Positions 1-42,918 of a stretch of 42,918 nt of DNA are shown piece after piece (the first letter of the stretch is position 1; each line of letters begins with the position of its first letter). The stretch is from a virus. The notes below the pieces were generated by a model. It had not been told where the DNA came from and did not search any database. It saw only the letters and a list, made by a program, of their open reading frames with translations. Made by a program: the position numbers and the translations under genes. The stretch spans positions 1 through 42,918 of IMG/VR virus record IMGVR_UViG_3300034069_000749; one strand, given 5' to 3'.

Positions 1-95
1 CATTCGGTTGAGTACTTGAACCGCCACGTCGGGCACTGGTTCGCGGTTTGCTCATGTGGCTGGAAGACAAGTGACTTGGGTTCCTGGTCAGAGGC
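1..95. repeat. 95-nt terminal direct repeat, copy 1 (identical to 42824..42918); circular replicon written with an end overlap
   Basis: Bases 1-95 (cattcggttgagtacttgaacc...ggttcctggtcagaggc) recur exactly as the last 95 bases of the window. Confidence 0.95.
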
Positions 96-150
96 TCGGG
101 TGGTTGGCGTCAGCCATCAGATTCTTGGCACGAGCGGCCAGGCGTCGTGA
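1..150 (+). CDS. 3' part of a small wrap-around CDS (about 52 aa if started at ATG 42815); hypothetical CxCGW-motif protein
   Basis: Frame 1 is open from the window edge to TGA 148-150 (HSVEYLNRHVGHWFAVCSCGWKTSDLGSWSEARVVGVSHQILGTSGQAS*). The same frame runs from ATG 42815, preceded by GAGGG, in the other repeat copy. Confidence 0.45.
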   Translation, partial: HSVEYLNRHVGHWFAVCSCGWKTSDLGSWSEARVVGVSHQILGTSGQAS

Positions 151-285
151 CTCCTTCCCGATCCGGGGGCACCAACTAGCAACAACAAGAAGACGGCCGC
201 TCCCATGCACGGGAACGACCGTCAATCCCCTCCACTGAGCAAGCAGCGAAAGGAACACGCACCAATGTACCGCCCCGAAAGAAGA

Positions 286-317
286 CCGTTACCTGTCAAT
301 GGGGACAGGGCCAACGG
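286..317. promoter_or_regulatory. Imperfect inverted repeat upstream of the left small-gene operon (candidate operator)
   Basis: ccgtt-a-cctgtc aatgg ggacagg-gcc-aacgg; arms CCGTT/AACGG and CCTGTC/GACAGG, about 35 nt upstream of the AAGGAG RBS of the gene at 352. Confidence 0.3.
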
Positions 318-351
318 CAACGCACACCCCACCCACACGCAAGGAGACAGC

Positions 352-681
352 ATGACCGACCCGACGCCCGCCACGGTGGCTGTACCCGTGGAACTTATCC
401 GGCAAATGCTTGACAACGAAGACACGGACTTGACGGACGACGTTCACAACGCCTTCCGCGCCCTCCTCCCCAAGCCGACCCCGCGGCTCGTGGCGGTGGA
501 CCTAGACAAGCTGTTTACCGAGCGGTCTTTCGGTGTGCCTGTTGTGACGCTAGATCTGCTGTCAGACCAACCCGACCTGCTGACCCTGCTTCAAGGGGTA
601 ATGGTGCGGGTGCAGTTGAACTCAAATCAGCGGTCTGCTGTGCTGATTGCTCTGAAGCACGATCTGGGGGTGACCGAATGA
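352..681 (+). CDS. Hypothetical protein P1 (paralog of 41901..42200)
   Basis: ATG 352 preceded by caAGGAGacagc. Stop overlaps the next start (ATGA). Shares ATVxVPVxLxR, PDLLTLLxGV and LGV(T/D)(E/Q)-end motifs with the reverse-strand ORF 41901-42200. Confidence 0.75.
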   Translation: MTDPTPATVAVPVELIRQMLDNEDTDLTDDVHNAFRALLPKPTPRLVAVDLDKLFTERSFGVPVVTLDLLSDQPDLLTLLQGVMVRVQLNSNQRSAVLIALKHDLGVTE

Positions 682-917
682 CTGACCTCACCGCCGCTCA
701 GATGACCGAGCGGCTTCGCACGTTTCGGAAGCACTACAGCCCGATAGCTCTGTACGTGCTGATGGACGATGTTGCCGATCTCATCGAGCAGCAGGCCGAG
801 CAGATCGCGGAGCTGACAGCAGAAGTAGCGACTGCTTGGGATGAAGGCTACGACGCTGGTAGCGGTGGCGATTATCACGATTTGGGCTACAACCCGTACA
901 GAGTGGAACACAAATGA
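678..917 (+). CDS. Hypothetical protein P2a (N-terminal and AWDEG/NPYR similarity to 41491..41904)
   Basis: ATGA start/stop coupling at both ends. MTD..., ADLIEQQAEQ, AWDEGY and NPYR motifs are shared with the reverse-strand ORF 41491-41904. Confidence 0.7.
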   Translation: MTDLTAAQMTERLRTFRKHYSPIALYVLMDDVADLIEQQAEQIAELTAEVATAWDEGYDAGSGGDYHDLGYNPYRVEHK

Positions 918-1246
918 GGAATCAATTGCGCGAACAACTTGACGCTTTGTCGTTGTCGTGGGGCAATACCGAGGCCGGTTTCACAATTCGCCAAACCATA
1001 TCTGAAATTGACAAGGCCGAGTCGGAAGTGGCGGAACTGCTCGACCAGTTGGCCGCCGCCGAAGCGAAGATCGCGCAGGCACCACACGCTCCTGGGTGTC
1101 AGATCGCCGGTCTGTGGATACTTCCTGTGGGCGGCGGTTTCGCCAAGCAGCAGTCAGGAGAGTGCACCTGCTGGAAGTCCGCCTCGCCCGTGTCTGCTCT
1201 CGACGCCATGCGCGCCAACGCCGCGAAGGATTCCAACCATGAGTAG
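914..1246 (+). CDS. Hypothetical protein P2b (central similarity to 41491..41904)
   Basis: ATGA coupling. Contains LAAAEAKIAQA and PVSALDAMRA, as does 41491-41904. Carries the 37-nt tract identical to 41760-41796 (reverse complement). Confidence 0.65.
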   Translation: MRNQLREQLDALSLSWGNTEAGFTIRQTISEIDKAESEVAELLDQLAAAEAKIAQAPHAPGCQIAGLWILPVGGGFAKQQSGECTCWKSASPVSALDAMRANAAKDSNHE

Positions 1247-1568
1247 GGCAACTGACCTGTTCTCAGCTGAGCGTGAGCGTCAAGTAAGCCATGAGGGGTA
1301 CGACCCGAAGCATGACAGTGGGCACGAGGGGGAGCTAGCGCTTGCTGCTGAGTCCTATGCACTGGCCGCGGCAGACGATCTTGGGGCACTGAGGTACGTT
1401 GCGAACAACCCTAACTATCCGCCGTTCGAATGGCCCTGGCACGAGGATTACTGGAAACCGACCGGCGACGCGAAGCGCGACCTCATAAAGGCGGGCGCGC
1501 TGCTCGCCGCCGCGCTTGACTCGCTGCTCGATTCTGAAGAAGCCGCGCAGACGGGAGCGGGCGAATGA
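1239..1568 (+). CDS. Hypothetical protein; pattern ERERQxxxEGYDxKHD...ELAxAAxxYA...WPW...WKP is reminiscent of the DUF550 / dATP-dGTP diphosphohydrolase N-terminal-like family (from memory, unverified)
   Basis: ATG 1239 lies in the tail of ORF 939-1568 and overlaps the upstream stop by 8 nt. Codon usage looks coding. Ends AAQTGAGE* on the repeated junction cassette. Confidence 0.6.
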   Translation: MSRATDLFSAERERQVSHEGYDPKHDSGHEGELALAAESYALAAADDLGALRYVANNPNYPPFEWPWHEDYWKPTGDAKRDLIKAGALLAAALDSLLDSEEAAQTGAGE

Positions 1569-1750
1569 TGTTGAGTTACCGAGAGTTCCGCCGGCGGTAC
1601 TCGTATCAGACCGCCGTTCTGGGTGAGCAGAGTCTTCACGGTCGTTACATGCGCCACTGTGCGTACTGGCGCACAAAGATGAACTCACCACGGTATAAGT
1701 GCGCAGTCTTCTACACAGTGCAGACTGGAGCGACCGATGCCCACCAGTGA
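1565..1750 (+). CDS. Hypothetical 61-aa protein (possible duplication remnant)
   Basis: ATGA coupling with the upstream stop and a GGGAG SD 7 nt upstream. Ends QTGATDAHQ*, as 41491-41904 ends QTGATDGHQ*. The body is basic and atypical. Confidence 0.4.
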   Translation: MMLSYREFRRRYSYQTAVLGEQSLHGRYMRHCAYWRTKMNSPRYKCAVFYTVQTGATDAHQ

Positions 1751-1919
1751 CGACCTCGCGGACGCTCGGTGCACCCACGGAGCGTGGCACTGGGAGCAAG
1801 GCCTACTCGCGTGGCTGAAAGTGTGCGACGCCTGCGAAGCCGCCTTTGGTATTGGCGGAAAGGCATACGGCCTGTACCGCACAGAGCAGATCGGAAAGGG
1901 AATCGATGCCCAGTCCTGA
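1737..1919 (+). CDS. Hypothetical protein P3a (N-terminus MPTSDDLADA, Cys/His-rich)
   Basis: ATG 1737 lies 6 nt after GGAGCG and overlaps the upstream stop by 14 nt (ATGcccaccagTGA). The N-terminus is paralogous to those at 1906 and 41504. Confidence 0.6.
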   Translation: MPTSDDLADARCTHGAWHWEQGLLAWLKVCDACEAAFGIGGKAYGLYRTEQIGKGIDAQS

Positions 1920-2190
1920 CGAACTGGCGGACGCGCTTTTCGATCAGCCCTACCCACAGGAATTCAGGGGTGTGGGTCGCTTCATCCCAGGTAAGGGTCA
2001 ACGTCGCGTTGTCCGAATCAAGCTAATGAAGAAAGAGCTTCGCACTCTGGCTCGTGACGCGGCTAAGCAAGCGCTGCTCGACGCGGCAGAGGCGTTCATC
2101 CACCTGGAGTCATTCGATCCAGATGCCGAGGACCCTGTTGGCTTCCTCCATGCCCGCGCTGAGCAGATCGGCACTCGGGATGGCGACTAA
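1906..2190 (+). CDS. Hypothetical protein P3b (paralog of 41289..41504)
   Basis: ATGcccagtccTGA overlap with the upstream gene. MPSPDELADA..., LARDAAKQALLDAAEAFI and ARAEQIG match MATSDELADN..., LARDAAKHALLDAAEEAI and ARTGQIG. Confidence 0.7.
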   Translation: MPSPDELADALFDQPYPQEFRGVGRFIPGKGQRRVVRIKLMKKELRTLARDAAKQALLDAAEAFIHLESFDPDAEDPVGFLHARAEQIGTRDGD

Positions 2191-3397
2191 GACCCGAGGC
2201 AAGGGCGAGGGCAGCCTGTACAAGGATGCGCGCGGCCTGTGGACGGCGGTGATTGAGTTGCCGCCGCGTGATGGGAAACGGCGGCGGAAGACGATCCGGT
2301 CGCGGGATAAAGCGACGGTGATGGACAGGCTGCGGGAGACGCAACGTGAGCTCGCGGAACGTGGTGACCTGCCGACCGCGGATCAGACTGTCGCGCAATG
2401 GTTCGGCTACTGGTACAGCCAAATCGTGTTGAAGGAGGTGCGCCCGAAGACTGCCGGCGGGTACAGGTCGATCATCGACCGGCATGTCATCCCCGAGATC
2501 GGCACACTCCGCCTCGCACGTGTCACGCCGACGTCTATCCGCCGCGTCACCGATCGAATCATCAACAACGGCGGGGCAGCATCATCCGCACTCAAAGCAC
2601 ACCAGGTCATGTCCTCCGCATTCGAGGCAGCACTCCGCGAAGGACGCATCAGCCGCAACCCCTGCAAGTTGATGGCCGCACCACGCAAGAACGTCACCAA
2701 ACTCGAAACACTCACCCGCACCGAAGCAAAACAGATCATCGACTACGTCGCAGCCGACCGCGAATACGGGGCACGCTGGGCAATGGCGCTCCTCACGGGG
2801 GCACGACGAGGTGAGATCCTCGGCCTCGAACGGGACCGCATCACCGACGTCATCGACCTGTCCTGGCAGTTGCAGCGCCTCTCAGTCGGGCAACGGACCA
2901 GCACCGGCAAGATCGGTGAACCCGTCGTCCCAAACGACTACGAATACCGGCACCTTTACGGCGGCTACTACCTCACCCGCCCCAAATCGCGTGCAGGGTG
3001 GCGCATCATCCCACTCGTCGAACCCCTCAAAAGCATCCTTGAGCTGCACATGGATGCCAACCCTGACGGACAATTCGGGCTCGTCTTCACCCGCAACCAA
3101 CGCCCCGTCGACCCCGACTACGACTCCAAACTGTGGACCCGCGTACTCGCAGCATCCGGCATCCAAAAACACGTCCGCCTCCACGACCTCCGACACACAG
3201 CCGTCGACCTCCTCTACGCAGCCGGACTCCCAGAAGAAACCATCATCCGCATCGTCGGACACTCAGCCGTGTCCATGACCCGCGCTTACGCATCTCGAGA
3301 CATCGACCGGTTGCGCGCTGGCATGGAAAAGTTCAGCGACTACTTCACCCGACCAGACGATTCACGTTCAGGAACACCCGAAGCAATCTCTGGCTGA
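2180..3397 (+). CDS. int: Tyrosine integrase (site-specific recombinase, phage integrase family)
   Basis: MATKTRGKGEGSLYKDARGLWTAVIELP N-terminus typical of actinophage Int. Catalytic signature: ARRGEILGL (Arg), HDLRHTAVD (H-x-x-R), GHS (His), Tyr in TRAYAS. Confidence 0.92.
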   Translation: MATKTRGKGEGSLYKDARGLWTAVIELPPRDGKRRRKTIRSRDKATVMDRLRETQRELAERGDLPTADQTVAQWFGYWYSQIVLKEVRPKTAGGYRSIIDRHVIPEIGTLRLARVTPTSIRRVTDRIINNGGAASSALKAHQVMSSAFEAALREGRISRNPCKLMAAPRKNVTKLETLTRTEAKQIIDYVAADREYGARWAMALLTGARRGEILGLERDRITDVIDLSWQLQRLSVGQRTSTGKIGEPVVPNDYEYRHLYGGYYLTRPKSRAGWRIIPLVEPLKSILELHMDANPDGQFGLVFTRNQRPVDPDYDSKLWTRVLAASGIQKHVRLHDLRHTAVDLLYAAGLPEETIIRIVGHSAVSMTRAYASRDIDRLRAGMEKFSDYFTRPDDSRSGTPEAISG

Positions 3398-3713
3398 CAC
3401 CCAACTCATTCGCCAACCTCGGCGCATCAGGCACCCACTCCATCAACCGCCGGCATTCATCCAGGTCGATCAGGTTTGCACTTGCGAGCCGATCAGCCTG
3501 GACTTCCGCTTTCGGTGACGACGTGCGATGCCCCAACGCTGCATGCGCCAACTCGTGCGCCAACGTCGACCGGTCATGCACCGCACGCAAACCCGTGCGA
3601 ATCACAATCAGGTTCCGGTCCGGGATCCAAAACCCGTTCGCTGTTCTAATCGGTCGGTGAATAACCTCGATGCCCTGGTTAGTGGCGTCCTGGTACGGGT
3701 CGTACTCCCCCAC
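3345..3713 (-). CDS. ImmA/IrrE-family zinc metallopeptidase (anti-repressor protease)
   Basis: HELAHAALGH (HExxH) motif. GTG start 18 nt downstream of the repressor stop with a GAGGA SD, matching immR-immA type operon order. The 3' end overlaps the int 3' end convergently. Confidence 0.85.
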   Translation of the reverse strand: MGEYDPYQDATNQGIEVIHRPIRTANGFWIPDRNLIVIRTGLRAVHDRSTLAHELAHAALGHRTSSPKAEVQADRLASANLIDLDECRRLMEWVPDAPRLANELGVSQRLLRVFLNVNRLVG

Positions 3714-3731
3714 GGTCTGATCCTCAGTGGT

Positions 3732-4241
3732 TTAGGAATCCCCATCCTCATCGAAGGCGGATTCCGGGGTGATCTCAGATGCAGCTTTGTCTTCGTTCCC
3801 AGCGTCGATTTGCTCTGCAGTGAGTTGGTCGTTTCGGCTGTGAAGCCGTGTCACGTTTGTAGCCGCTGCCTCCGACATTGCGGTCGTATTAGCCGCAAGT
3901 CGAGCGTTTGAATCTTCAATGAGGACGTTCAATCCACCCATTCGATTGACCGCTTTCCGGGTCAAGTCGTCCGGGTCGACTTCCAGAGCGTGCGCTATCA
4001 AGCCGAGCTGCGTGATGTTGATGTCTCGTTCACCCCGAAGTATTCGGTCCATCGTCATCTTTGGCATGCCCGAAAGCTCGGCGAGGCGTGCGGAAGACAT
4101 CCGCGGACTCTTCGCCCCTTTCTCTGCCCGAATTTCGGCAGCCAGGGCGGCGTTCATAGGTGAGTTCTTCGTATCCACTTGGACGACTTTATCTCCATAT
4201 GGCGTCGAAGTGGAACTATTTGGGCCAGAAGCCTTGCGCAT
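3732..4241 (-). CDS. XRE/CI-type HTH repressor
   Basis: HTH_XRE signature SSARLAELSGMPKMTMDRILRGERDINITQLGLIAHALEV. Divergent from the Cro-like gene. An alternative start at M29 (4157) cannot be excluded. Confidence 0.85.
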   Translation of the reverse strand: MRKASGPNSSTSTPYGDKVVQVDTKNSPMNAALAAEIRAEKGAKSPRMSSARLAELSGMPKMTMDRILRGERDINITQLGLIAHALEVDPDDLTRKAVNRMGGLNVLIEDSNARLAANTTAMSEAAATNVTRLHSRNDQLTAEQIDAGNEDKAASEITPESAFDEDGDS

Positions 4242-4269: not shown

Positions 4270-4491
4270 ATGGAAAGAAGAAGCCTGGCGCTTACGGTCA
4301 CGGAAAACGTGGCCGCAGCCATTGAGCGTTCCAACGAGACGCTCATCACCATCTCCCAAGCCACCGACATCCCTGTTTCAGGACTTCGCGAACGACTCGC
4401 CAATCGAGTCGAATTCACGATGTCCGAGATTGGACGTGTCGGTGGCTTTTTCCGTATCCACCCCGCTGACCTTTTGGAGAGTGCGAAGTGA
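4270..4491 (+). CDS. Cro-like HTH DNA-binding protein
   Basis: ATG 4270 has no SD and a -10-like hexamer 7 nt upstream (leaderless type). HTH segment TISQATDIPVSGLRERL. Divergent from the repressor. Confidence 0.7.
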   Translation: MERRSLALTVTENVAAAIERSNETLITISQATDIPVSGLRERLANRVEFTMSEIGRVGGFFRIHPADLLESAK

Positions 4492-4685
4492 CCAACCTCG
4501 AGGACACGAAAGAAGACGTTCTGGTCTACTCCGTCTCGTCACTGGCGGCGAAGATCAATAAAAGCCCCCAGTTCGTTCGCAATGCGATCAACTCCGGCCG
4601 CCTCGCCGCAAAGAAAGAAGGGCGCGCCATCTTCATCAAGCCGATCGAAGCCAGACGGTGGATCGACGAAATGCAGGACGCGTGA
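4488..4685 (+). CDS. HTH_17 (excisionase/MerR-like) DNA-binding protein
   Basis: GTGA coupling. VYSVSSLAAKINKSPQFVRNAINSGRLAAKKEGRAIFIKPIEARRWIDEM fits the excisionase-family HTH pattern. Confidence 0.7.
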   Translation: MTNLEDTKEDVLVYSVSSLAAKINKSPQFVRNAINSGRLAAKKEGRAIFIKPIEARRWIDEMQDA

Positions 4686-9006: not shown

Positions 9007-9680
9007 GCCTGCAAATCTTCGACCAGCTCGAGCAAGGATCTGACCAATGGTTGCAGGCACGATGCGGCCTACCCACCGCATCCACAATCGGGAAACTCCT
9101 CACCCCCAAACTCGACGTCGCCAACAACGACACCTCACGCGGACTCACCGAAACACTCGTCGCCGAAAGGATCACCGGACACGTCGACTACGTGCACCCA
9201 TCGTTCGACATGCAGCTCGGGACCATGAACGAGCCGCTAGCTCGCGACCTGTACCGGGAGCAGTTCGCACCCGTTCACGAAATCGGGTTCGCCGTACGGG
9301 ACATCGGTGGGTTGAAACTTGGCGGGTCACCAGACGGGCTCGTAGGTGAGCAGGGAGGCATCGAGATAAAAAGCCGCCGCCCGAAGACCCACCTGCGCAC
9401 GATCCTCAGCAACACAGTGCCGGCCGAGAACATGGCACAGATTCAGACGCTGATGCTCATCCTCGAACGCGACTGGTTCGACTATGTGTCTTACTGCCAG
9501 GGATTTCCGTTGTTCGTCATCCGGGTCTACCCCGACCTCGAATGGCGCGACGCCATCAAAGCCGCGATCCGCAACTTCGAAGCCAACGCGGCACAGATGA
9601 TCGCCACCTACAAAGCCGCCGTTGGCAACGCACCCGCTGCGCCCTACGTTGACCACTTCCAAGACATCGAGATCGCCTAA
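9003..9680 (+). CDS. YqaJ/lambda-Exo-like recombination exonuclease (PD-(D/E)xK)
   Basis: GSDQWLQARCG, GTMNEPLAR, SPDGLV and GGIEIKSRR motifs in the typical YqaJ order. Confidence 0.85.
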   Translation: MSLQIFDQLEQGSDQWLQARCGLPTASTIGKLLTPKLDVANNDTSRGLTETLVAERITGHVDYVHPSFDMQLGTMNEPLARDLYREQFAPVHEIGFAVRDIGGLKLGGSPDGLVGEQGGIEIKSRRPKTHLRTILSNTVPAENMAQIQTLMLILERDWFDYVSYCQGFPLFVIRVYPDLEWRDAIKAAIRNFEANAAQMIATYKAAVGNAPAAPYVDHFQDIEIA

Positions 9681-10234
9681 TGGACATTTCCGCAACCACC
9701 GCACCACGTTCCGACCAGCAAAACTACGACGACTACCAGGCCGGCCCCAAGACAGTGACAGTCACCGAGGTCAAGGCTGGCAGCGATGAGCAGCCGGTCG
9801 AAATCCACCTCGCCGAGTTCCCTGGACGACCCTACAAACCGTCGAAAAGCATGCGGCGGGTGCTCGTCCAGGCATGGGGCAAAGAGTCCTCAACCTACGC
9901 CGGCAGGAGACTCACCCTCGTCGGCGACCCCACCGTCCGCTTCGGCGGATCAGTCGTCGGCGGGATCAAAATCAGCCACCTCTCCCACATCGACAAACCA
10001 CTCAGCCTCGCACTCACCGTCACCCGCGGCAAACGCGCCAGCTACACAGTGCAGCCGCTCACAGAAGCCGCACCCACACGCGACTGGGCTGCAGAACTCA
10101 AGCTCGCCGGAACAGACATCGACGCGATCGCCGCACTCGGCACAGCAGCATCCGGAGCCGGCGCACCAGACGACGTACTCAGCGTCATCCGGGACGCATA
10201 CAAGAAAGCAGCAACCACCAATGCACCTAGTTGA
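9680..10234 (+). CDS. Hypothetical protein; possible ssDNA-annealing or ssDNA-binding partner of the exonuclease (position only)
   Basis: TAATG coupling to the exonuclease gene. Beta-rich core TVTVTEV..PVEIHL..RLTLVGDPTVRFGGSVVGGIKI. No family recognised. Confidence 0.55.
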   Translation: MDISATTAPRSDQQNYDDYQAGPKTVTVTEVKAGSDEQPVEIHLAEFPGRPYKPSKSMRRVLVQAWGKESSTYAGRRLTLVGDPTVRFGGSVVGGIKISHLSHIDKPLSLALTVTRGKRASYTVQPLTEAAPTRDWAAELKLAGTDIDAIAALGTAASGAGAPDDVLSVIRDAYKKAATTNAPS

Positions 10235-16924: not shown

Positions 16925-18892
16925 ATGTCAGTCCCGCGCCGCGGCACACAAAACACCGTCTACGGAGACTCCGCACCCCGAGCACTCCGCGACTACCTTG
17001 TGCTCCGCGCGGTGACCCCGTGCCGCTTCGTCATCCTCGGCTCATCAACCCCCGCCGGGTCCACCGCCACCACCGTCGCAAACCGTGTCGTCAACCGGCT
17101 CCTCGTCGCAATCCAGTCCGCATACCCTGCACCATCCGGGACAACCGAGCAGACCATCGGAACACTCGACACCACCCCGTCAACCGCAGGTGGCATCCAG
17201 TTCTACAACGGGGCAGTGTCAGGCAACACGTCAAGCAACTACGCCGACAGCACCACCATCACCAAAACCGTCGCAATCGCCCCCCGGGTCATCATTCACT
17301 GGGTTGGCTCCAACGACTACGCAGCCAACGTCGCCCCGGCCACCTACAAGGCGAACCTGAAGTCCGTCATCGACTCCATCGACGCGCAACTCACAGCACC
17401 CCACATCCACGTCCTCATCCAAGGACACGAACGCTTTGACGTCACCGGGCGCACCTACACCTGGGCTCAGTACGGACGGGCACAAGACGAACTCGCTGCC
17501 ACCCAGACCCTCGGCAACGTGTTCAACGTCGACATCTCAAGCTACTTCTACCCGCTCGGCGTCGCACCCTCCACCCAGTACGGCACCGACACCCTCGGCC
17601 TCATGAACGCCGACAAAATCCACATGCTCGACGCCGGCCACGCACTCATGGCCGAAGCGATCGCACGCCAGCTCGGCATCATCAACACGCCCCAGGCCGC
17701 CCTTGTCCTCGCCGACACGACCCCGCCGACCGTCCCTGGCACACCCACCGCTACCGCCGGCACCACGTCAGCATCGCTCACCTGGGCAGCCTCCACAGAC
17801 GCCAACGCGCCTATCACCTACCTTGTGTACTCGTCCGCTGACGGCTACACCAACGCCATCGGAACGACCCAGGCGACCAACTACACCGCCACGTCGCTCC
17901 CGGCCGGCACAGCAGTGTCATTCAAGGTCGCCGCCCGAGACCCCTCCAACAACACGTCCGCGCAGTCCGCTGCGTCCAACGCAGTCACCCCGACCGCGTC
18001 GACTGGCGCAGACACCACACCCCCTGGTGTCTCCACCCTGAGCGCGAAGCCGAAGCCAGCCAGCGCGCTGCTCACATGGTCTGCGGCCACCGACGACGTC
18101 GCAGTGACGAACTACCGGATCTTCCGAGACGGCACAGCAGTCACCACCGTGGGAAACGTGCTCACCTACGCGGACAGCGCCCTGACCAACGGCACCCGGT
18201 ACAGCTACACCATCGCCGCAATGGACGCCGCCGGCAACATCGGTATCCAATCAGCCGCAGCCCTCGTCGTCCCCGGCCAGATCGTCGACAACTTCGACCG
18301 CACTTCCAGCGCACTCTCCGGGCAGACAGCAGAGACAGGCGAAACCTGGCTCGCACCAATCAGCCACACCCTCGACATCCTGCCCACCGGACTCGTCAAA
18401 CGGAACTACGCCACCGACGCATCCGCCACCACAGGCCGCGCACTCAATATCGTCACCGCACCTCTCTCCGCATCCGGCGGATTCAAATACGCCATCAAGC
18501 TCGGAGCAGCACCCACCGCAGCAGGAGTCGCATCCGGTGGCCCCGCATTCGAATCCACCGCAGACGGATCCAACTTCTACTACCTCGGACTCCGCGCATC
18601 CACCTCAAGCATGGTCTACGCCTTCTTCCAAATCCCCACCCTCGGAGGCGGCGCATCAACCCGAGGCGCATCCGGCGTATCCACCATCACCCCACAAACA
18701 GGCGACCTCATCGAGATCGTCCGCACCACAGCCAACCCCACCGCCGTATCCCTCTACGTCAACGGGGCATTCGTACTCACCACCGGCACCACCTTCGCCA
18801 CACCCTCATCGTCCAACGCCTACATCGGCATGTACGAAAACGGTGACGCCGTCTTCGAATACGACTCCATCAGCTTCACCCAAATCCCCTAA
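16925..18892 (+). CDS. SGNH/GDSL-type esterase fused to two FN3-like domains and a C-terminal lectin/LamG-like domain
   Basis: Blocks VILGSST, NGAVSG, HWVGSNDY and DKIHMLDAGH. FN3-like SASLTWAAS..ITYLVYSS and ALLTWSAATDDVAVTNYRIFRDG. Confidence 0.7.
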   Translation: MSVPRRGTQNTVYGDSAPRALRDYLVLRAVTPCRFVILGSSTPAGSTATTVANRVVNRLLVAIQSAYPAPSGTTEQTIGTLDTTPSTAGGIQFYNGAVSGNTSSNYADSTTITKTVAIAPRVIIHWVGSNDYAANVAPATYKANLKSVIDSIDAQLTAPHIHVLIQGHERFDVTGRTYTWAQYGRAQDELAATQTLGNVFNVDISSYFYPLGVAPSTQYGTDTLGLMNADKIHMLDAGHALMAEAIARQLGIINTPQAALVLADTTPPTVPGTPTATAGTTSASLTWAASTDANAPITYLVYSSADGYTNAIGTTQATNYTATSLPAGTAVSFKVAARDPSNNTSAQSAASNAVTPTASTGADTTPPGVSTLSAKPKPASALLTWSAATDDVAVTNYRIFRDGTAVTTVGNVLTYADSALTNGTRYSYTIAAMDAAGNIGIQSAAALVVPGQIVDNFDRTSSALSGQTAETGETWLAPISHTLDILPTGLVKRNYATDASATTGRALNIVTAPLSASGGFKYAIKLGAAPTAAGVASGGPAFESTADGSNFYYLGLRASTSSMVYAFFQIPTLGGGASTRGASGVSTITPQTGDLIEIVRTTANPTAVSLYVNGAFVLTTGTTFATPSSSNAYIGMYENGDAVFEYDSISFTQIP

Positions 18893-40930: not shown

Positions 40931-41058
40931 GACGCCTCCAACGGCCCGAACGTATGTGTCTGTTTGAACCAGACTACGCTCCGGCTGGCGTTCAAAGAAT
41001 GACCCAGTTTCTTCGCATGACTAGGCCCGGTGTCGGTGGTTGGGTGGACACTGGTCGC

Positions 41059-41292
41059 ATGACTGAGCGTGACAGGGTACTGCTGGATTTCGAGGACGCG
41101 CATCCGATGCCTGGCCCGTTGAAGGTGGCGGCGATCAGGTTGCAGCTCGGATTGAGTGCGGCCCGGTACCAGCAGCGGCTGATTGGGCTTATGCGGTCGC
41201 GTGAGGCGTTGGAGGGGTGGCCGCAGCTTGTGCACCGTTGGGAGCGGCAAACGGCGGCACAAGCGCGGCTGCGGGCTGTGCGCGGGTTCTAG
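41059..41292 (+). CDS. DUF3263-like protein
   Basis: MTERDRVLLDFE...IRLQLGLSAARYQQRLIGLMRSREALEGWPQLVHRWER matches the actinobacterial DUF3263 pattern. Upstream ATGs at 40999 and 41017 are alternative starts. Confidence 0.65.
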   Translation: MTERDRVLLDFEDAHPMPGPLKVAAIRLQLGLSAARYQQRLIGLMRSREALEGWPQLVHRWERQTAAQARLRAVRGF

Positions 41293-41504
41293 TTACCGAT
41301 CTGCCCAGTGCGGGCCCTGAGCCACTCGGCAACATAACGGCCATTCGGGCTAAATTCGATGGCTTCCTCCGCTGCGTCGAGCAGCGCATGTTTGGCCGCG
41401 TCACGAGCCAAGTCGCGGAGTACCTGGCCCAGCTCGGCGCGCATGATCGGCAAGCCGGCAAGTTCTTCCGTAACGTTGTCCGCGAGTTCGTCACTGGTGG
41501 CCAT
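41289..41504 (-). CDS. Hypothetical protein P3' (paralog of 1906..2190 and of the N-terminus of 1737..1919)
   Basis: ATGgccaccagTGA overlap with the upstream gene; GGGAG SD. MATSDELADN, LARDAAKHALLDAAEEAI. The stop overlaps the DUF3263 stop (CTAG). Confidence 0.7.
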   Translation of the reverse strand: MATSDELADNVTEELAGLPIMRAELGQVLRDLARDAAKHALLDAAEEAIEFSPNGRYVAEWLRARTGQIGN

Positions 41505-41904
41505 CGGTCGCTCCCGTCTGCGCGGCACGGTACGGGTTATCCGGGTCATCCATAGACCGGTCGTTGTACTGCTCTATGCGGTCTCGGACTGCCTGGGCAC
41601 CCTCGTCCCAGGCCTCGGCGCGCACGGCGTCGAGAGCGGATACGGGCCCTTCGAGGACGGCATGGAAGTCATCCCATGCCTGCTCGTACCCTTTGAGGAA
41701 TGCGTGCCGCCTGACGGGTTCGTCGATAGGGACCACTTCGTGACGCTGAGGAATGCGGAGTGCCTGCGCGATCTTCGCTTCGGCGGCGGCCAACTGTTTG
41801 GCTTGCTGCTCGATGAGGTCGGCGGCGTCGGCTTCGAGTTTCCAATCCGTGTACGTCTCGTCACGCAGCAGGTTGACGAGTTCCGCATGGCTGATGTCGG
41901 TCAC
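41491..41904 (-). CDS. Hypothetical protein P2' (mosaic paralog of 678..917, 914..1246 and the end of 1565..1750)
   Basis: ADLIEQQAKQLAAAEAKIAQA, PVSALDAVRAEAWDEG, NPYRAAQTGATDGHQ. Confidence 0.7.
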   Translation of the reverse strand: MTDISHAELVNLLRDETYTDWKLEADAADLIEQQAKQLAAAEAKIAQALRIPQRHEVVPIDEPVRRHAFLKGYEQAWDDFHAVLEGPVSALDAVRAEAWDEGAQAVRDRIEQYNDRSMDDPDNPYRAAQTGATDGHQ

Positions 41905-42200
41905 TGGTCGACCCCCAGAGCAGTGCGGATGCGGGACTTCATGACAGTTACGGCAGCGGGCTCAATTCCGTACATCCGCCAGCCAACGTCCTCAATCACA
42001 CCGTCGAGCAGGGTCAGCAGGTCAGGGAGCGTGGCGAGGTATTCGCCGATGATGTTGGTTCCGTCGTCCTCCACCGCAACGATGCGCCGGCGTGGGAGTA
42101 GACCCCTTGCCTCTCCCAAGGCGAAGGCACCTGGTTCATCCTCAACCAACTTTCGTAACAGACGAACGGGCACTTCCACCGTGGCGGCATTGTCGCTCAT
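41901..42200 (-). CDS. Hypothetical protein P1' (paralog of 352..681)
   Basis: Overlap coupling at both ends. ATVEVPVRLLRKL, PDLLTLLDGVI, ALGVDQ-end. Confidence 0.7.
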   Translation of the reverse strand: MSDNAATVEVPVRLLRKLVEDEPGAFALGEARGLLPRRRIVAVEDDGTNIIGEYLATLPDLLTLLDGVIEDVGWRMYGIEPAAVTVMKSRIRTALGVDQ

Positions 42201-42391
42201 CGCGTTGCCCCTTTCGGAGTGACGGGTGTAGACAGCGCGTCCAGGTCGGTGCGGGCAATCACGATGCGGCGCAGACCGAGCCGGGATGCCGGCAGTGTCC
42301 CGTCGTCGATGAATCTTCTGAGGGTGCTGACGCTGAGCGTCGAGTAGTCGGCTGCCTCTTTGAGGGTGAGCCGCGGTTCGTTCGTGTCCAT
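42197..42391 (-). CDS. HTH_17 excisionase-family DNA-binding protein (candidate Xis/RDF)
   Basis: LTLKEAADYSTLSVSTLRRFIDDGTLPASRLGLRRIVIARTDLDAL. It is the first gene next to attP. Leaderless-type promoter. Confidence 0.7.
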   Translation of the reverse strand: MDTNEPRLTLKEAADYSTLSVSTLRRFIDDGTLPASRLGLRRIVIARTDLDALSTPVTPKGATR

Positions 42392-42397
42392 GCTGCC

Positions 42398-42403
42398 AGG
42401 TTA
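42398..42403 (-). promoter_or_regulatory. -10-like TAACCT, 6 nt upstream of ATG 42391 (leaderless type)
   Basis: The minus strand reads actccatttggagtCATAACCTGGCAgcATG. The palindrome actcca-tt-tggagt lies just upstream. Confidence 0.4.
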
Positions 42404-42586
42404 TGACTCCAAATGGAGTACCGCAAGTGCTGTTGGGAACTCCTAAGCGCTTACGATCGTCAGTGAATTACCCAAAATTGTTCACTGGCACCTGAACGTA
42501 CCCAGAAATGGGGTGGCGACAACGTCGGCTGCATCAGCGGCTACACTCGGGCTGTTCAGATAAGTGCTGTTCCCAGTGTTTATTTG

Positions 42587-42633
42587 AGCCGCCTGTCGGA
42601 ATCGAACCGACGACCTTCTCATTACGAGTGAGA
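42587..42633 (-). other. 3' portion of tRNA-Thr(CGT) (anticodon arm, variable loop, T arm, acceptor 3' strand): putative attP core
   Basis: The reverse complement reads tctca-ctCGTaa-tgaga aggtc gtcgg-ttcgatt-ccgac aggcggc t. No matching 5' acceptor strand or D arm is present upstream. Confidence 0.7.
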
Positions 42634-42814
42634 AGATATGTCGCCGTTCAGTCTTGCTTTCACCCCAAATAGAGTACTAGGGTGTCCATATGGCCCACCG
42701 GGCACTAGGTGGGCTGCAAGTGATGGCAACACGTTAGGCACCAAGGACAAATGGCCGGAAGAAGAAGATGAAAACTCATTGGTTAATCGACAACGTGAGC
42801 GAGCTGAGGGCCGC

Positions 42815-42918
42815 ATGACTGGGCATTCGGTTGAGTACTTGAACCGCCACGTCGGGCACTGGTTCGCGGTTTGCTCATGTGGCTGGAAGACAAGTGACTT
42901 GGGTTCCTGGTCAGAGGC
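42815..42918 (+). CDS. 5' part of the wrap-around small CDS (continues at bases 96-150)
   Basis: ATG 42815 lies 4 nt after GAGGG. The frame is open to the window end and continues through the repeat copy. An upstream in-frame ATG at 42638 is an alternative start. Confidence 0.4.
   Translation, partial: MTGHSVEYLNRHVGHWFAVCSCGWKTSDLGSWSE
42824..42918. repeat. 95-nt terminal direct repeat, copy 2
   Basis: Identical to bases 1-95. Confidence 0.95.

Follow-up and report, generated by a model that had tools for sequence, protein, structure and literature searches.

The virus record IMGVR_UViG_3300034069_000749 of IMG/VR was analysed over its full length of 42,918 nucleotides (nt), hereafter the window, with attention to two sets of small genes, termed A, B and C, which diverge from a phage attachment site (attP) derived from a tRNA gene. 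Because bases 1-95 recur at the other end of the contig, the window represents a circularly closed genome of 42,823 bp (G+C 60%). By gene order the virus is a complete circular temperate siphophage; its host is a soil actinobacterium, and the nearest isolated phage is Arthrobacter phage Pitbull, which shares 74.6% amino acid (aa) identity in the large terminase. The closest relative is L005, a 44-kb contig that also comes from JGI; attP is flanked there by B-like and C-like genes on each side, and the L005 integrase shares 97% aa identity with that of the window.

Two paralogous gene sets diverging from attP

Two operons of small open reading frames (ORFs) are transcribed away from each other at this locus (Table 1). 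The leftward operon (42391-41289) consists of a helix-turn-helix (HTH) gene followed by A_R, B_R and C_R, all overlapping; the HTH stop overlaps the A_R start by 4 nt, and C_R starts 14 nt inside the 3' end of B_R. The rightward operon is an unbroken chain (352-3397) of A_L, B_L1, B_L2, X, a 61-aa ORF, C_L1, C_L2 and the integrase gene int, in which each ORF overlaps the next by 4-14 nt and the C_L2 stop overlaps the int start by 11 nt. The ORFs listed in an initial annotation of the locus all lie where it had placed them, and the geometry that it described, with two sets diverging around a tRNA-derived attP, one headed by an HTH gene and the other terminated by the integrase, is correct.

The same annotation paired the two sets as protein-level paralogs, which was borne out by BLASTP for A_R and A_L (37% over 78 aa, E 3e-7), B_R and B_L1 (40%, E 6e-6) and C_R and C_L2 (40% over 100 aa, E 3e-10). 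Smith-Waterman scores were compared with those of 1000 shuffled sequences, none of which reached the observed score, and gave z values of 11.6 for A, 9.2 for B_R/B_L1, 10.3 for B_R/B_L2 and 14.3 for C_R/C_L2. The similarity extends to the DNA, where eight collinear inverted patches join 571-2171 to 42026-41296. These include a perfect 37-nt match (1046-1082 to 41796-41760) and a 44-nt match of 93% identity (1720-1763 to 41521-41478) that spans the junction between a B stop and a C start.

The correspondence is not one to one. C occurs as a tandem duplicate on the left, and of the two copies that had been paired with C_R only C_L2 is a clear counterpart; C_R/C_L1 is marginal (z 3.6), with similarity confined to the termini. 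C_L1 is 87% identical (aa) to the gene immediately upstream of int in another relative, L006. The B genes are likewise paralogous, although the left copy proved to be three module-shuffled ORFs with an inserted X rather than one split gene. In B_R the modules run in the order N-terminal region, coiled coil (LAAAEAKIAQA), linker devoid of a Cys/His knuckle, PVSALDAVRAEAWDEG, NPYR and junction tail. B_L2 carries the 37-nt inverted patch, is truncated where domain X starts and is a mosaic match to the B gene of L006. X matches only the C-terminal domains of PHROGs with no assigned function (for example phrog_6628, E 1e-24) and was also called as a gene in an independent assembly (L095); an X-like segment recurs in the B-family protein P0024, fused between an Ead-like N-terminus and a B module. 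The 61-aa ORF, which is probably a remnant, has a weak coding signal, and only its last ~14 codons (QTGATDAHQ-stop) are B-like, where they form a B/C junction. The shared motifs reported in the initial annotation are therefore of two kinds: ATVEVPV, PDLLTLL, LAAAEAKIAQA, PVSALDAVRA.AWDEG and LARDAAKQALLDAAE are internal and reflect genuine protein similarity, whereas several others are by-products of gene junctions.

The leading gene of the leftward operon resembles excisionase/AlpA-type HTH_17 proteins and passes the curated thresholds of both PF12728 HTH_17 (39.3 bits, cut-off 27) and TIGR01764 ‘excise’ (37.6 bits, cut-off 28.8), which places it in the excisionase domain family. It shares 93% aa identity with the gene at the equivalent position in L005, with a ratio of non-synonymous to synonymous substitution rates (dN/dS) of 0.13. 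In contrast to known excisionase genes, it has attP and the left set between itself and int, and its role as a recombination directionality factor (RDF) is putative. Because a second HTH_17-like gene (4488-4685) holds the position of the annotated excise gene in Pitbull, the attP-adjacent gene need not be the RDF of the cognate integrase; the second gene may be an alternative candidate. The relative L094 has int and lacks the attP-adjacent HTH gene.

Table 1. Positions of features at and around the locus; coordinates refer to the window unless another contig is named.
Feature	Position	Strand	Description
Terminal direct repeat	1-95 = 42824-42918		exact, 95 nt; assembler circularisation overlap
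attP core	about 42585-42636	tRNA sense on -	3' part of tRNA-Thr(CGU), 49-52 nt
253-nt insertion	about 42745-42823 + 1-174		not in L005; contains the contig ends
52-aa ORF	42816 through circular junction to 150	+	MTGHSVEYLNRHVGHWFAVCSCGWKTSD...; MTGHSVEYLNRHVGHWFAVCSCGWKTSDLGSWSEARVVGVSHQILGTSGQAS; inside the 253-nt insertion
Terminator-like hairpin	192-223	-	14 pairs, then U-rich UUCUUGUUGUUG; oriented toward attP
Leader of the int transcription unit	247-330	+	conserved, non-coding, ~80 nt
Leader hairpin	292-297/304-309	+	6 bp
Invariant GCCAACGGCAACGCA	310-324	+	follows the leader hairpin
Leader copies in relatives	L005 9529-9709; L048 3226-3308; L016 747-830; L050 529-612; L014 9734-9816		
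A_L	352-681	+	109 aa; first gene of the rightward chain; strong Shine-Dalgarno sequence AAGGAG; divergent paralog of A_R
B_L1	678-917	+	79 aa; B N-terminus fused directly to the WDEG...NPYR module
B_L2	914-1246	+	110 aa; coiled coil, H..C..CxCWKS knuckle, PVSALDAMRA; B profile E 3e-26
X	1239-1568	+	109 aa; inserted domain; ends in a B-type tail (EEAAQTGAGE-stop)
61-aa ORF	1565-1750	+	probable remnant
C_L1	1737-1919	+	60 aa; C-type termini around a CxH...CxxC middle
C_L2	1906-2190	+	94 aa; canonical C; C profile E 1.4e-31
int	2180-3397	+	tyrosine integrase (PF00589, PF22022, PF14659); final gene of the rightward chain
ImmA-like peptidase and HTH_3 repressor pair	3345-4241	-	beyond int; repressor itself 3732-4241
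Second HTH_17-like gene	4488-4685	+	65 aa; 23.7 bits, under cut-off; early rightward operon, after a cro-like gene
Early region, then terminase, portal and tape-measure-sized ORF		rightward (early region)	long early region; ORF of 1,282 aa; placed by gene order and terminase match
Lysis region	near 38-40 kb		placed by gene order; weak Pfam support
DUF3263 gene	40954-41292	+	convergent with C_R
C_R	41289-41504	-	71 aa; final gene of the leftward operon; C profile E 9.5e-15
B_R	41491-41904	-	137 aa
A_R	41901-42200	-	99 aa; family without assignment; paralog of A_L
Excisionase-family HTH gene	42197-42391	-	64 aa; first gene of the leftward operon
L015 homing-endonuclease (HNH) genes	L015 8364-8738, 9598-9960	+	third copy at 17780-18010

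The attP spacer and the leader of the int operon

Read directly from the sequence, the attP core spans the anticodon arm, variable loop, T arm and acceptor 3' strand of a tRNA-Thr gene, and it matches phage and host tRNA-Thr genes at 84-89%; resemblance to tRNA-Thr extends over about 42570-42636. ARAGORN found no complete tRNA in the window, and the attP region of L005 lies in a block of 99% identity. An exact 25-nt copy of the T-arm segment of attP (window 42587-42611) occurs in an early-region ORF of L094 (16387-16411), distant from the L094 integrase.

Because the tRNA sense lies on the minus strand, the leftward set would be downstream of, and co-oriented with, the tRNA-Thr reconstituted upon integration. 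The positions that the initial annotation predicted for the integrated state, with each set at one end of the prophage and reading inward, are thus correct, and no terminator was predicted between the reconstituted tRNA and the right set. Because attP is intergenic, integration leaves every gene intact and every operon with its promoter. Integration-state sensing around attP does have an actinophage precedent in mycobacteriophages BPs, Brujita and Charlie, in which attP lies in the repressor gene and integration truncates the repressor (PMC4557955, PMC3694055). Integration-dependent immunity of this kind was rejected for the window, where attP is a tRNA fragment in the divergent spacer, the repressor gene lies beyond int and no ORF is cut.

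This spacer, which had been described as a shared control region of ~0.9 kb, measures 783 bp because bases 1-95 duplicate 42824-42918. It does hold attP, as described, and it is not empty, since it also contains a 52-aa ORF within a 253-nt insertion, a strong hairpin that resembles a minus-strand terminator, and the conserved int-operon leader. The 52-aa ORF has its own Shine-Dalgarno (SD) sequence, GAGGG, 5 nt ahead of the ATG, and no Pfam match was found for it. Its H..H..CxCGWK motif bears a loose resemblance to the CxCWKS knuckle of the B family.

The contig ends lie inside this spacer, within the 253-nt segment that L005 lacks, and the independent contig L095, a Logan assembly from a different run that is 100% identical to window 1053-3623, breaks exactly in the 37-nt inverted repeat. 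The mirror arrangement might on these grounds have arisen in assembly, through a chimeric join or the collapse of a repeat where the contig ends, an outcome that the initial annotation had itself named as fatal to its account. However, a k-mer assembler would break in such a repeat, which explains the L095 breakpoint, and the 95-nt terminal overlap is exact. On either side of the insertion, the window is collinear with a single uninterrupted segment of L005, which bears xis (the HTH gene), attP, the leader and A, and L005 carries its own B and C copies on both sides. Independent contigs also show each half of the arrangement: the left set is present in L095, and L099, a 998-nt Logan contig from another sample, contains the xis C-terminus, an A-like gene, a B/C hybrid and a gene for a small predicted membrane protein, and is thus of the right-operon type. 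We therefore consider an assembly artefact very improbable.

The terminator-like hairpin is kept nearly identical in L005, with one stem change from G.U to A-U. RNA from the minus strand of 176-352 has a predicted folding energy of -75.4 kcal/mol (z -3.1 relative to shuffled sequences), compared with -42.3 kcal/mol (z -0.55) for the plus strand. The structured RNA, from the strand opposite the A_L-int operon, would be antisense to the A_L ribosome-binding site; it could be a cis-antisense RNA over this site, or an insulator that stops transcription on the repressor strand before it reaches attP.

The leader immediately precedes the first ORF of the int unit in six phages (the window, L005, L048, L016, L050 and L014), although that first ORF varies among them and their integrases are 47-97% identical. 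Compensatory double changes are found in four of the six stem pairs of its hairpin, and none of the six pairs is broken. No Rfam match was obtained for the leader or for the window as a whole. Because the leader is followed by whichever ORF comes first in the six phages, the left gene set sits inside the int unit. It could control integrase expression, either as a regulatory RNA or as an operator.

Shared junctions and movement of the gene sets

Many of the similarities between the two sets fall at gene ends. The junction at the end of B, aacccgtaccgtgccgcgcagacGGGAGcgaccgATG, encodes the B tail (NPYRAAQTGATD..) and at the same time contains the SD sequence and start codon of the next gene. 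Likewise, the C-end junction gcgctgagcagatcgg..gggATG encodes the C tail (RAEQIG..), and the A-end junction ctGGGGGtcgaccaGTG encodes the A tail (LGVDQ). These junctions recur in five genomes (the window, L005, L006, L008 and L009) irrespective of whether the next gene is C, int or an unrelated ORF. X and two L005 genes (65 aa and 58 aa) either have a B-type tail or come after one, and the C-int junctions are kept in the window, L005 and L006. Since the shared tails encode the SD sequence and start of the gene that follows, part of the original motif list consists of translational-coupling signals. Many small genes of L094 (10333-11975), L014 and L048 end in ..(K/E)AGL-stop and overlap the next start; because this ending differs from the AAQTGATD and RAEQIG tails, reusable junctions are apparently a general trait of this phage group.

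Exchange at short boundary sequences has long been proposed for phage mosaicism and has rarely been documented in actinophages; a reported case is the mycobacteriophage Island3, in which gp67 and gp68 share their C-terminal 18 residues (PMC3029335). The window resembles this model in that unrelated neighbours share 3' tails and junction DNA, and in that exchange points fall on these patches. It differs in that the junctions are translational-coupling signals comprising an SD sequence and a start codon, that they are reused repeatedly within one genome and on both strands, and that the exchange is between inverted copies across attP.

Such an exchange is seen by comparison with L005, in which the minus strand encodes HTH_17, 57-aa, 61-aa, B-like, 66-aa, C-like, 59-aa and 34-aa products and the plus strand encodes A, B', 65-aa, 58-aa, C' and int. 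Window 41777-42185 matches L005 10131-9720 in inverted orientation at 92.8%, and this cassette of A and the 5' part of B (414 bp) therefore lies on opposite sides of attP and in opposite orientations in the two genomes. A_R is a near-ortholog of the int-side A gene of L005 (9702-10004; 95% aa identity). A_L matches the L005 A gene in its 5' untranslated region and first 38 nt. The orientation of the xis-attP-leader block is unchanged (window 42192-42743 against L005 8973-9523, and 179-389 against 9529-9739), and simple inversion of an invertible attP segment therefore does not account for the difference between the two genomes. The synonymous divergence (dS) between the window and L005 is 0.067 for the A_R pair compared with 0.32 for int and 0.34 for xis, thus indicating that the cassette was exchanged, inverted, across attP long after the backbones had diverged. 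One end of the inverted tract (41777) lies within the 37-nt exact patch at 41760-41796; gene conversion or a double crossover at conserved patches would explain the swap. Because the cassette changes sides and is inverted, the copies are best described as interchangeable rather than as side-specific partners.

Mirror synteny in relatives, which the initial annotation had suggested looking for, was found in part. B-family mirror copies are present in L005, L014 and L048. In L014 the inverted B-like pair around attP/int aligns with E 6e-20; the minus-strand copy follows a gene beside attP that appears to encode a ribbon-helix-helix (RHH) protein instead of HTH_17 (18.9 bits against RHH_1 of Pfam, under the cut-off of 20.5), the B copies on the plus strand are found downstream of int, and a gene for an HD-domain protein and other unrelated genes occupy the space between attP and int. 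L048 has minus-strand B-like and RHH genes, a gap, and then a plus-strand coiled-coil gene, a B-like gene and further ORFs toward int; its leading gene appears to be of the RHH type by eye, from similarity to that of L014. Other relatives are one-sided or laid out differently. L094, which is 94.7% identical to the window in the late/lysis region, has a set on the int side only, headed by an A-like gene, and L006 has the order B-C-int. In L097 an HTH_17...B operon adjoins the lysis genes, and an Ltp-type exclusion lipoprotein gene lies on the int side. The 63-kb phage L008 carries a B gene with an Ead-like N-terminus, together with C, in an early operon that reads rightward and lies more than 10 kb from any integrase gene; the pair follows SSB and Rad52 genes and precedes an unannotated 331-aa ORF that is a possible nuclease, as read from its sequence with no Pfam match.

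A scan of metagenomes with an integrase profile retrieved 80 loci with integrases 43-77% identical, and B-like modules occur on either strand in about a quarter of those with sufficient upstream flank. The distance from attP to int is ~0.3 kb in L061 and L072, 1.1-1.7 kb in L015, L043, L014 and L005, and 2.4 kb in the window; since the length and the contents of this gap vary among relatives, it is a cargo site in the clade. L015 was rejected as a further mirror case, as its attP-flanking paralogs are HNH homing endonucleases in direct orientation. Scans of genome contigs with the B and int profiles found nothing, and no integrated prophage or host was therefore recovered. In viral contigs, a single-protein B search and the C profile yielded nothing, the B profile gave only one weak partial match (L007), the integrase matches begin at contig ends, and the xis matches (L010-L013) are limited to a 51% similar HTH with no A, B or C. 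The C profile had no match in the metagenome collection. In the more distant relatives L018, L028, L052, L062 and L089, a DUF3263 homolog lies directly upstream of the integrase; because the two are adjacent there, an ancestral order of DUF3263 followed by int is suggested, to which the attP-flanking cassettes were added afterwards.

The reading that we favour, with modest confidence, is that A, B and C form a mobile accessory cassette (A-B-C), of which the two sets are copies lying in a hypervariable region that flanks attP. One copy, expanded and module-shuffled, would have inserted between the leader of the int unit and int itself, where the unbroken overlap chain implies that any production of Int should be accompanied by that of its products. 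The other would follow the excisionase-family HTH gene in the second overlapping operon across attP. Homologous recombination or gene conversion at short conserved sequences, both internal patches such as LAAAEAKIAQA and the junctions that carry the SD sequence and start of the next gene, would keep the copies similar and exchange them. The inverted orientation could be a matter of survivorship, because recombination between direct repeats would cost the phage its attP, or the lysogen its entire prophage, whereas inverted repeats would only invert.

Alternatively, A-B-C could have an accessory function in site-specific recombination or in the lysogeny decision and be present twice by design, the two sets biasing integration against excision or reporting integration. 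The overlaps that couple the sets to int and to the HTH gene do exist physically, the conserved C-int junctions would fit such a role, and so would the B-like genes that flank the presumed attP on each side in four genomes (the window, L005, L014 and L048). The xis-A-B/C order is seen again in L099, and in the integrated state the reconstituted tRNA would immediately precede the right set, with no terminator predicted in between. However, the B-C pair of L008 has neither int nor attP nearby, L094 has int and an A-like gene and no second set, and the cassettes change sides between the window and L005. The plus-strand B copies of L014 lie downstream of int and its attP-int gap holds unrelated genes, integration at the intergenic attP cuts no gene, and the second HTH_17 gene is in the canonical excise position. 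We thus regard this alternative as unlikely. A dedicated mirror-symmetric system for sensing the integration state or setting directionality, as raised in the initial annotation, is not supported, on much the same evidence, to which the junction origin of several motifs is added. A variant that we also rate as improbable is an unrecognised integration-cassette module of actinophages, in which one copy is translated alongside Int from the int leader and a diverged one accompanies an excisionase-family or RHH regulator across attP; each end of the prophage would then bear one copy, and the balance between them would tune whether the phage integrates, stays or excises. If that were true, the mirrored B-like genes in four genomes, with integrases 48-97% identical, would reflect selection; a recombination accessory would represent a new class of factor modulating integration and excision.

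The A, B and C proteins and their likely roles

The three families are rare. A, B and C belong to no Pfam, PHROG, NCBIfam or PADLOC family and have no relatives in the PDB by profile searches, and tBLASTn with canonical B and C gave no match in 50,697 GenBank phage genomes. A word-indexed search of 5.8 billion proteins returned four B, four C and two A sequences, those of the window included, and an exhaustive search of 1.84 billion cluster representatives found only 32 members of the B profile. Orthologs have dN/dS values of 0.06-0.48, which indicates purifying selection.

B is modular, with a consensus of a variable N-terminus, a coiled coil (..ERDAVIEQAPH), H..C...CxCWKS, ..AL.A..A..WDEG and ..NPYR. 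B-C hybrids (P0011 and P0019) exist, as do fusions of a B module with an Ead-like N-terminus and an X-like segment (P0024) or with a LuxR-type HTH (P0033). An AlphaFold model of canonical B from 26 sequences (predicted local distance difference test score, pLDDT, 78) comprises a long helix, a β-hairpin bearing the His/Cys residues and further helices; the modelled hairpin is a probable zinc knuckle, for which the residues in canonical P0003 are H48, C52, C67 and C69. Neither the PDB nor BFVD contained a fold match to this model. The AF2 model of B_R, built from six sequences, is all helical with a pLDDT of 59 and is too poor for use.

The closest functional analogue, as judged from position, size, coiled-coil modularity and coupling to int and xis, may be the exo-xis region of phage lambda, a small and highly mosaic cluster of ORFs beside the integration module that is co-transcribed with int and xis. 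The lambda exo-xis genes modulate lysogenization and induction, and among their products is the coiled-coil protein Ea22, which consists of an N-terminal domain, a coiled coil and a C-terminal domain and shifts the lysis-lysogeny decision (PMC3824215, PMC7093339, PMC10834534). Some B members, namely P0014 and the B gene of L008, have an Ead-like ‘ATPGPW’ N-terminus, and the L008 B-C pair, which follows a Rad52-type recombinase gene, would be placed much like the lambda exo-xis genes if the reading of the 331-aa ORF as a nuclease holds. There are clear differences. The window proteins do not belong to PF13935 (Ead_Ea22): none of them, B_R, B_L1 and B_L2 included, matches it at E ≤ 0.1, and the L008 B gene does not at E ≤ 0.01; P0014 is the only relative that does match, below the cut-off (E 5e-5; 24.3 bits against 27). 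The hosts here are actinobacteria, and lambda has no mirrored second copy. Furthermore, the set described here lies between attP and int and reads away, whereas the lambda genes lie upstream of xis-int and read toward attP.

A different role is conceivable if the cassettes are lysogeny-expressed morons at the prophage ends, which serve in superinfection exclusion, defence or counter-defence and have diversified in an arms race. Prophage ends are a classic moron position, and in the integrated state both sets would be there, reading inward. The rapid mosaic evolution and the several diverged paralogs per genome are consistent with this proposal, as are the Ltp-type exclusion lipoprotein gene in the equivalent region of L097 and the small predicted membrane protein encoded in the sets of L005 and L099; the right set could in addition be read through from the tRNA promoter. 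Against it, PADLOC-DB 2.0 contains no credible match for A, B, C or X (the weak matches are B_L2 to JetA, E 0.018, and C_L2 to SspE, E 0.066), and the only strong match in the region is that of the HTH gene to mad1 (E 9e-6), which runs through the HTH domain only. Coupling ties the left set to int, a gene that is normally off in a stable lysogen, and the L008 pair lies in an early lytic operon. We consider moron function a tenable but doubtful explanation. An accessory system, which the initial annotation had offered as one option and supposed to be expressed in lysogeny, is nevertheless the option that the evidence favours. By analogy, A, B and C would most likely be small helical regulators or interaction modules that act on the host or on the lysis-lysogeny decision, and most likely not parts of the recombination reaction itself.

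Several points weigh against a mobile accessory cassette. Mirrored B-like copies occur in at least four genomes (the window, L005, L014 and L048) with integrases as low as 48% identical, so that selection for one copy per side, rather than tolerance, is conceivable. Most of the informative contexts lie less than 4 kb from an integrase, a count that is biased because the 80 loci were retrieved via the integrase itself. No sigma-70-like promoters were predicted, and co-expression of either set with Int or with the HTH gene is therefore proposed from ORF overlaps only. The analogy with exo-xis draws on position, modular coiled-coil architecture and the one sub-threshold match of P0014 to PF13935, and the regulatory functions suggested for A, B and C are purely proposed.

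The locus is one of mosaic accessory genes beside an integration module and is of moderate interest. It defines three small uncharacterised protein families, A, B (with a coiled coil, a putative zinc knuckle and WDEG...NPYR) and C, and its covarying leader hairpin and structured antisense strand are candidates for post-transcriptional control of integrase expression. If the sets are indeed copies of a mobile cassette, they would provide a clean natural example of accessory-gene shuffling in phages, in which translational-coupling junctions double as portable recombination linkers and an inverted cassette has moved across attP between otherwise collinear genomes, an event so recent that it can be dated (dS 0.07 against 0.33). 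The attP-int gap of this clade would then be an insertion site for cargo that is co-translated with Int.

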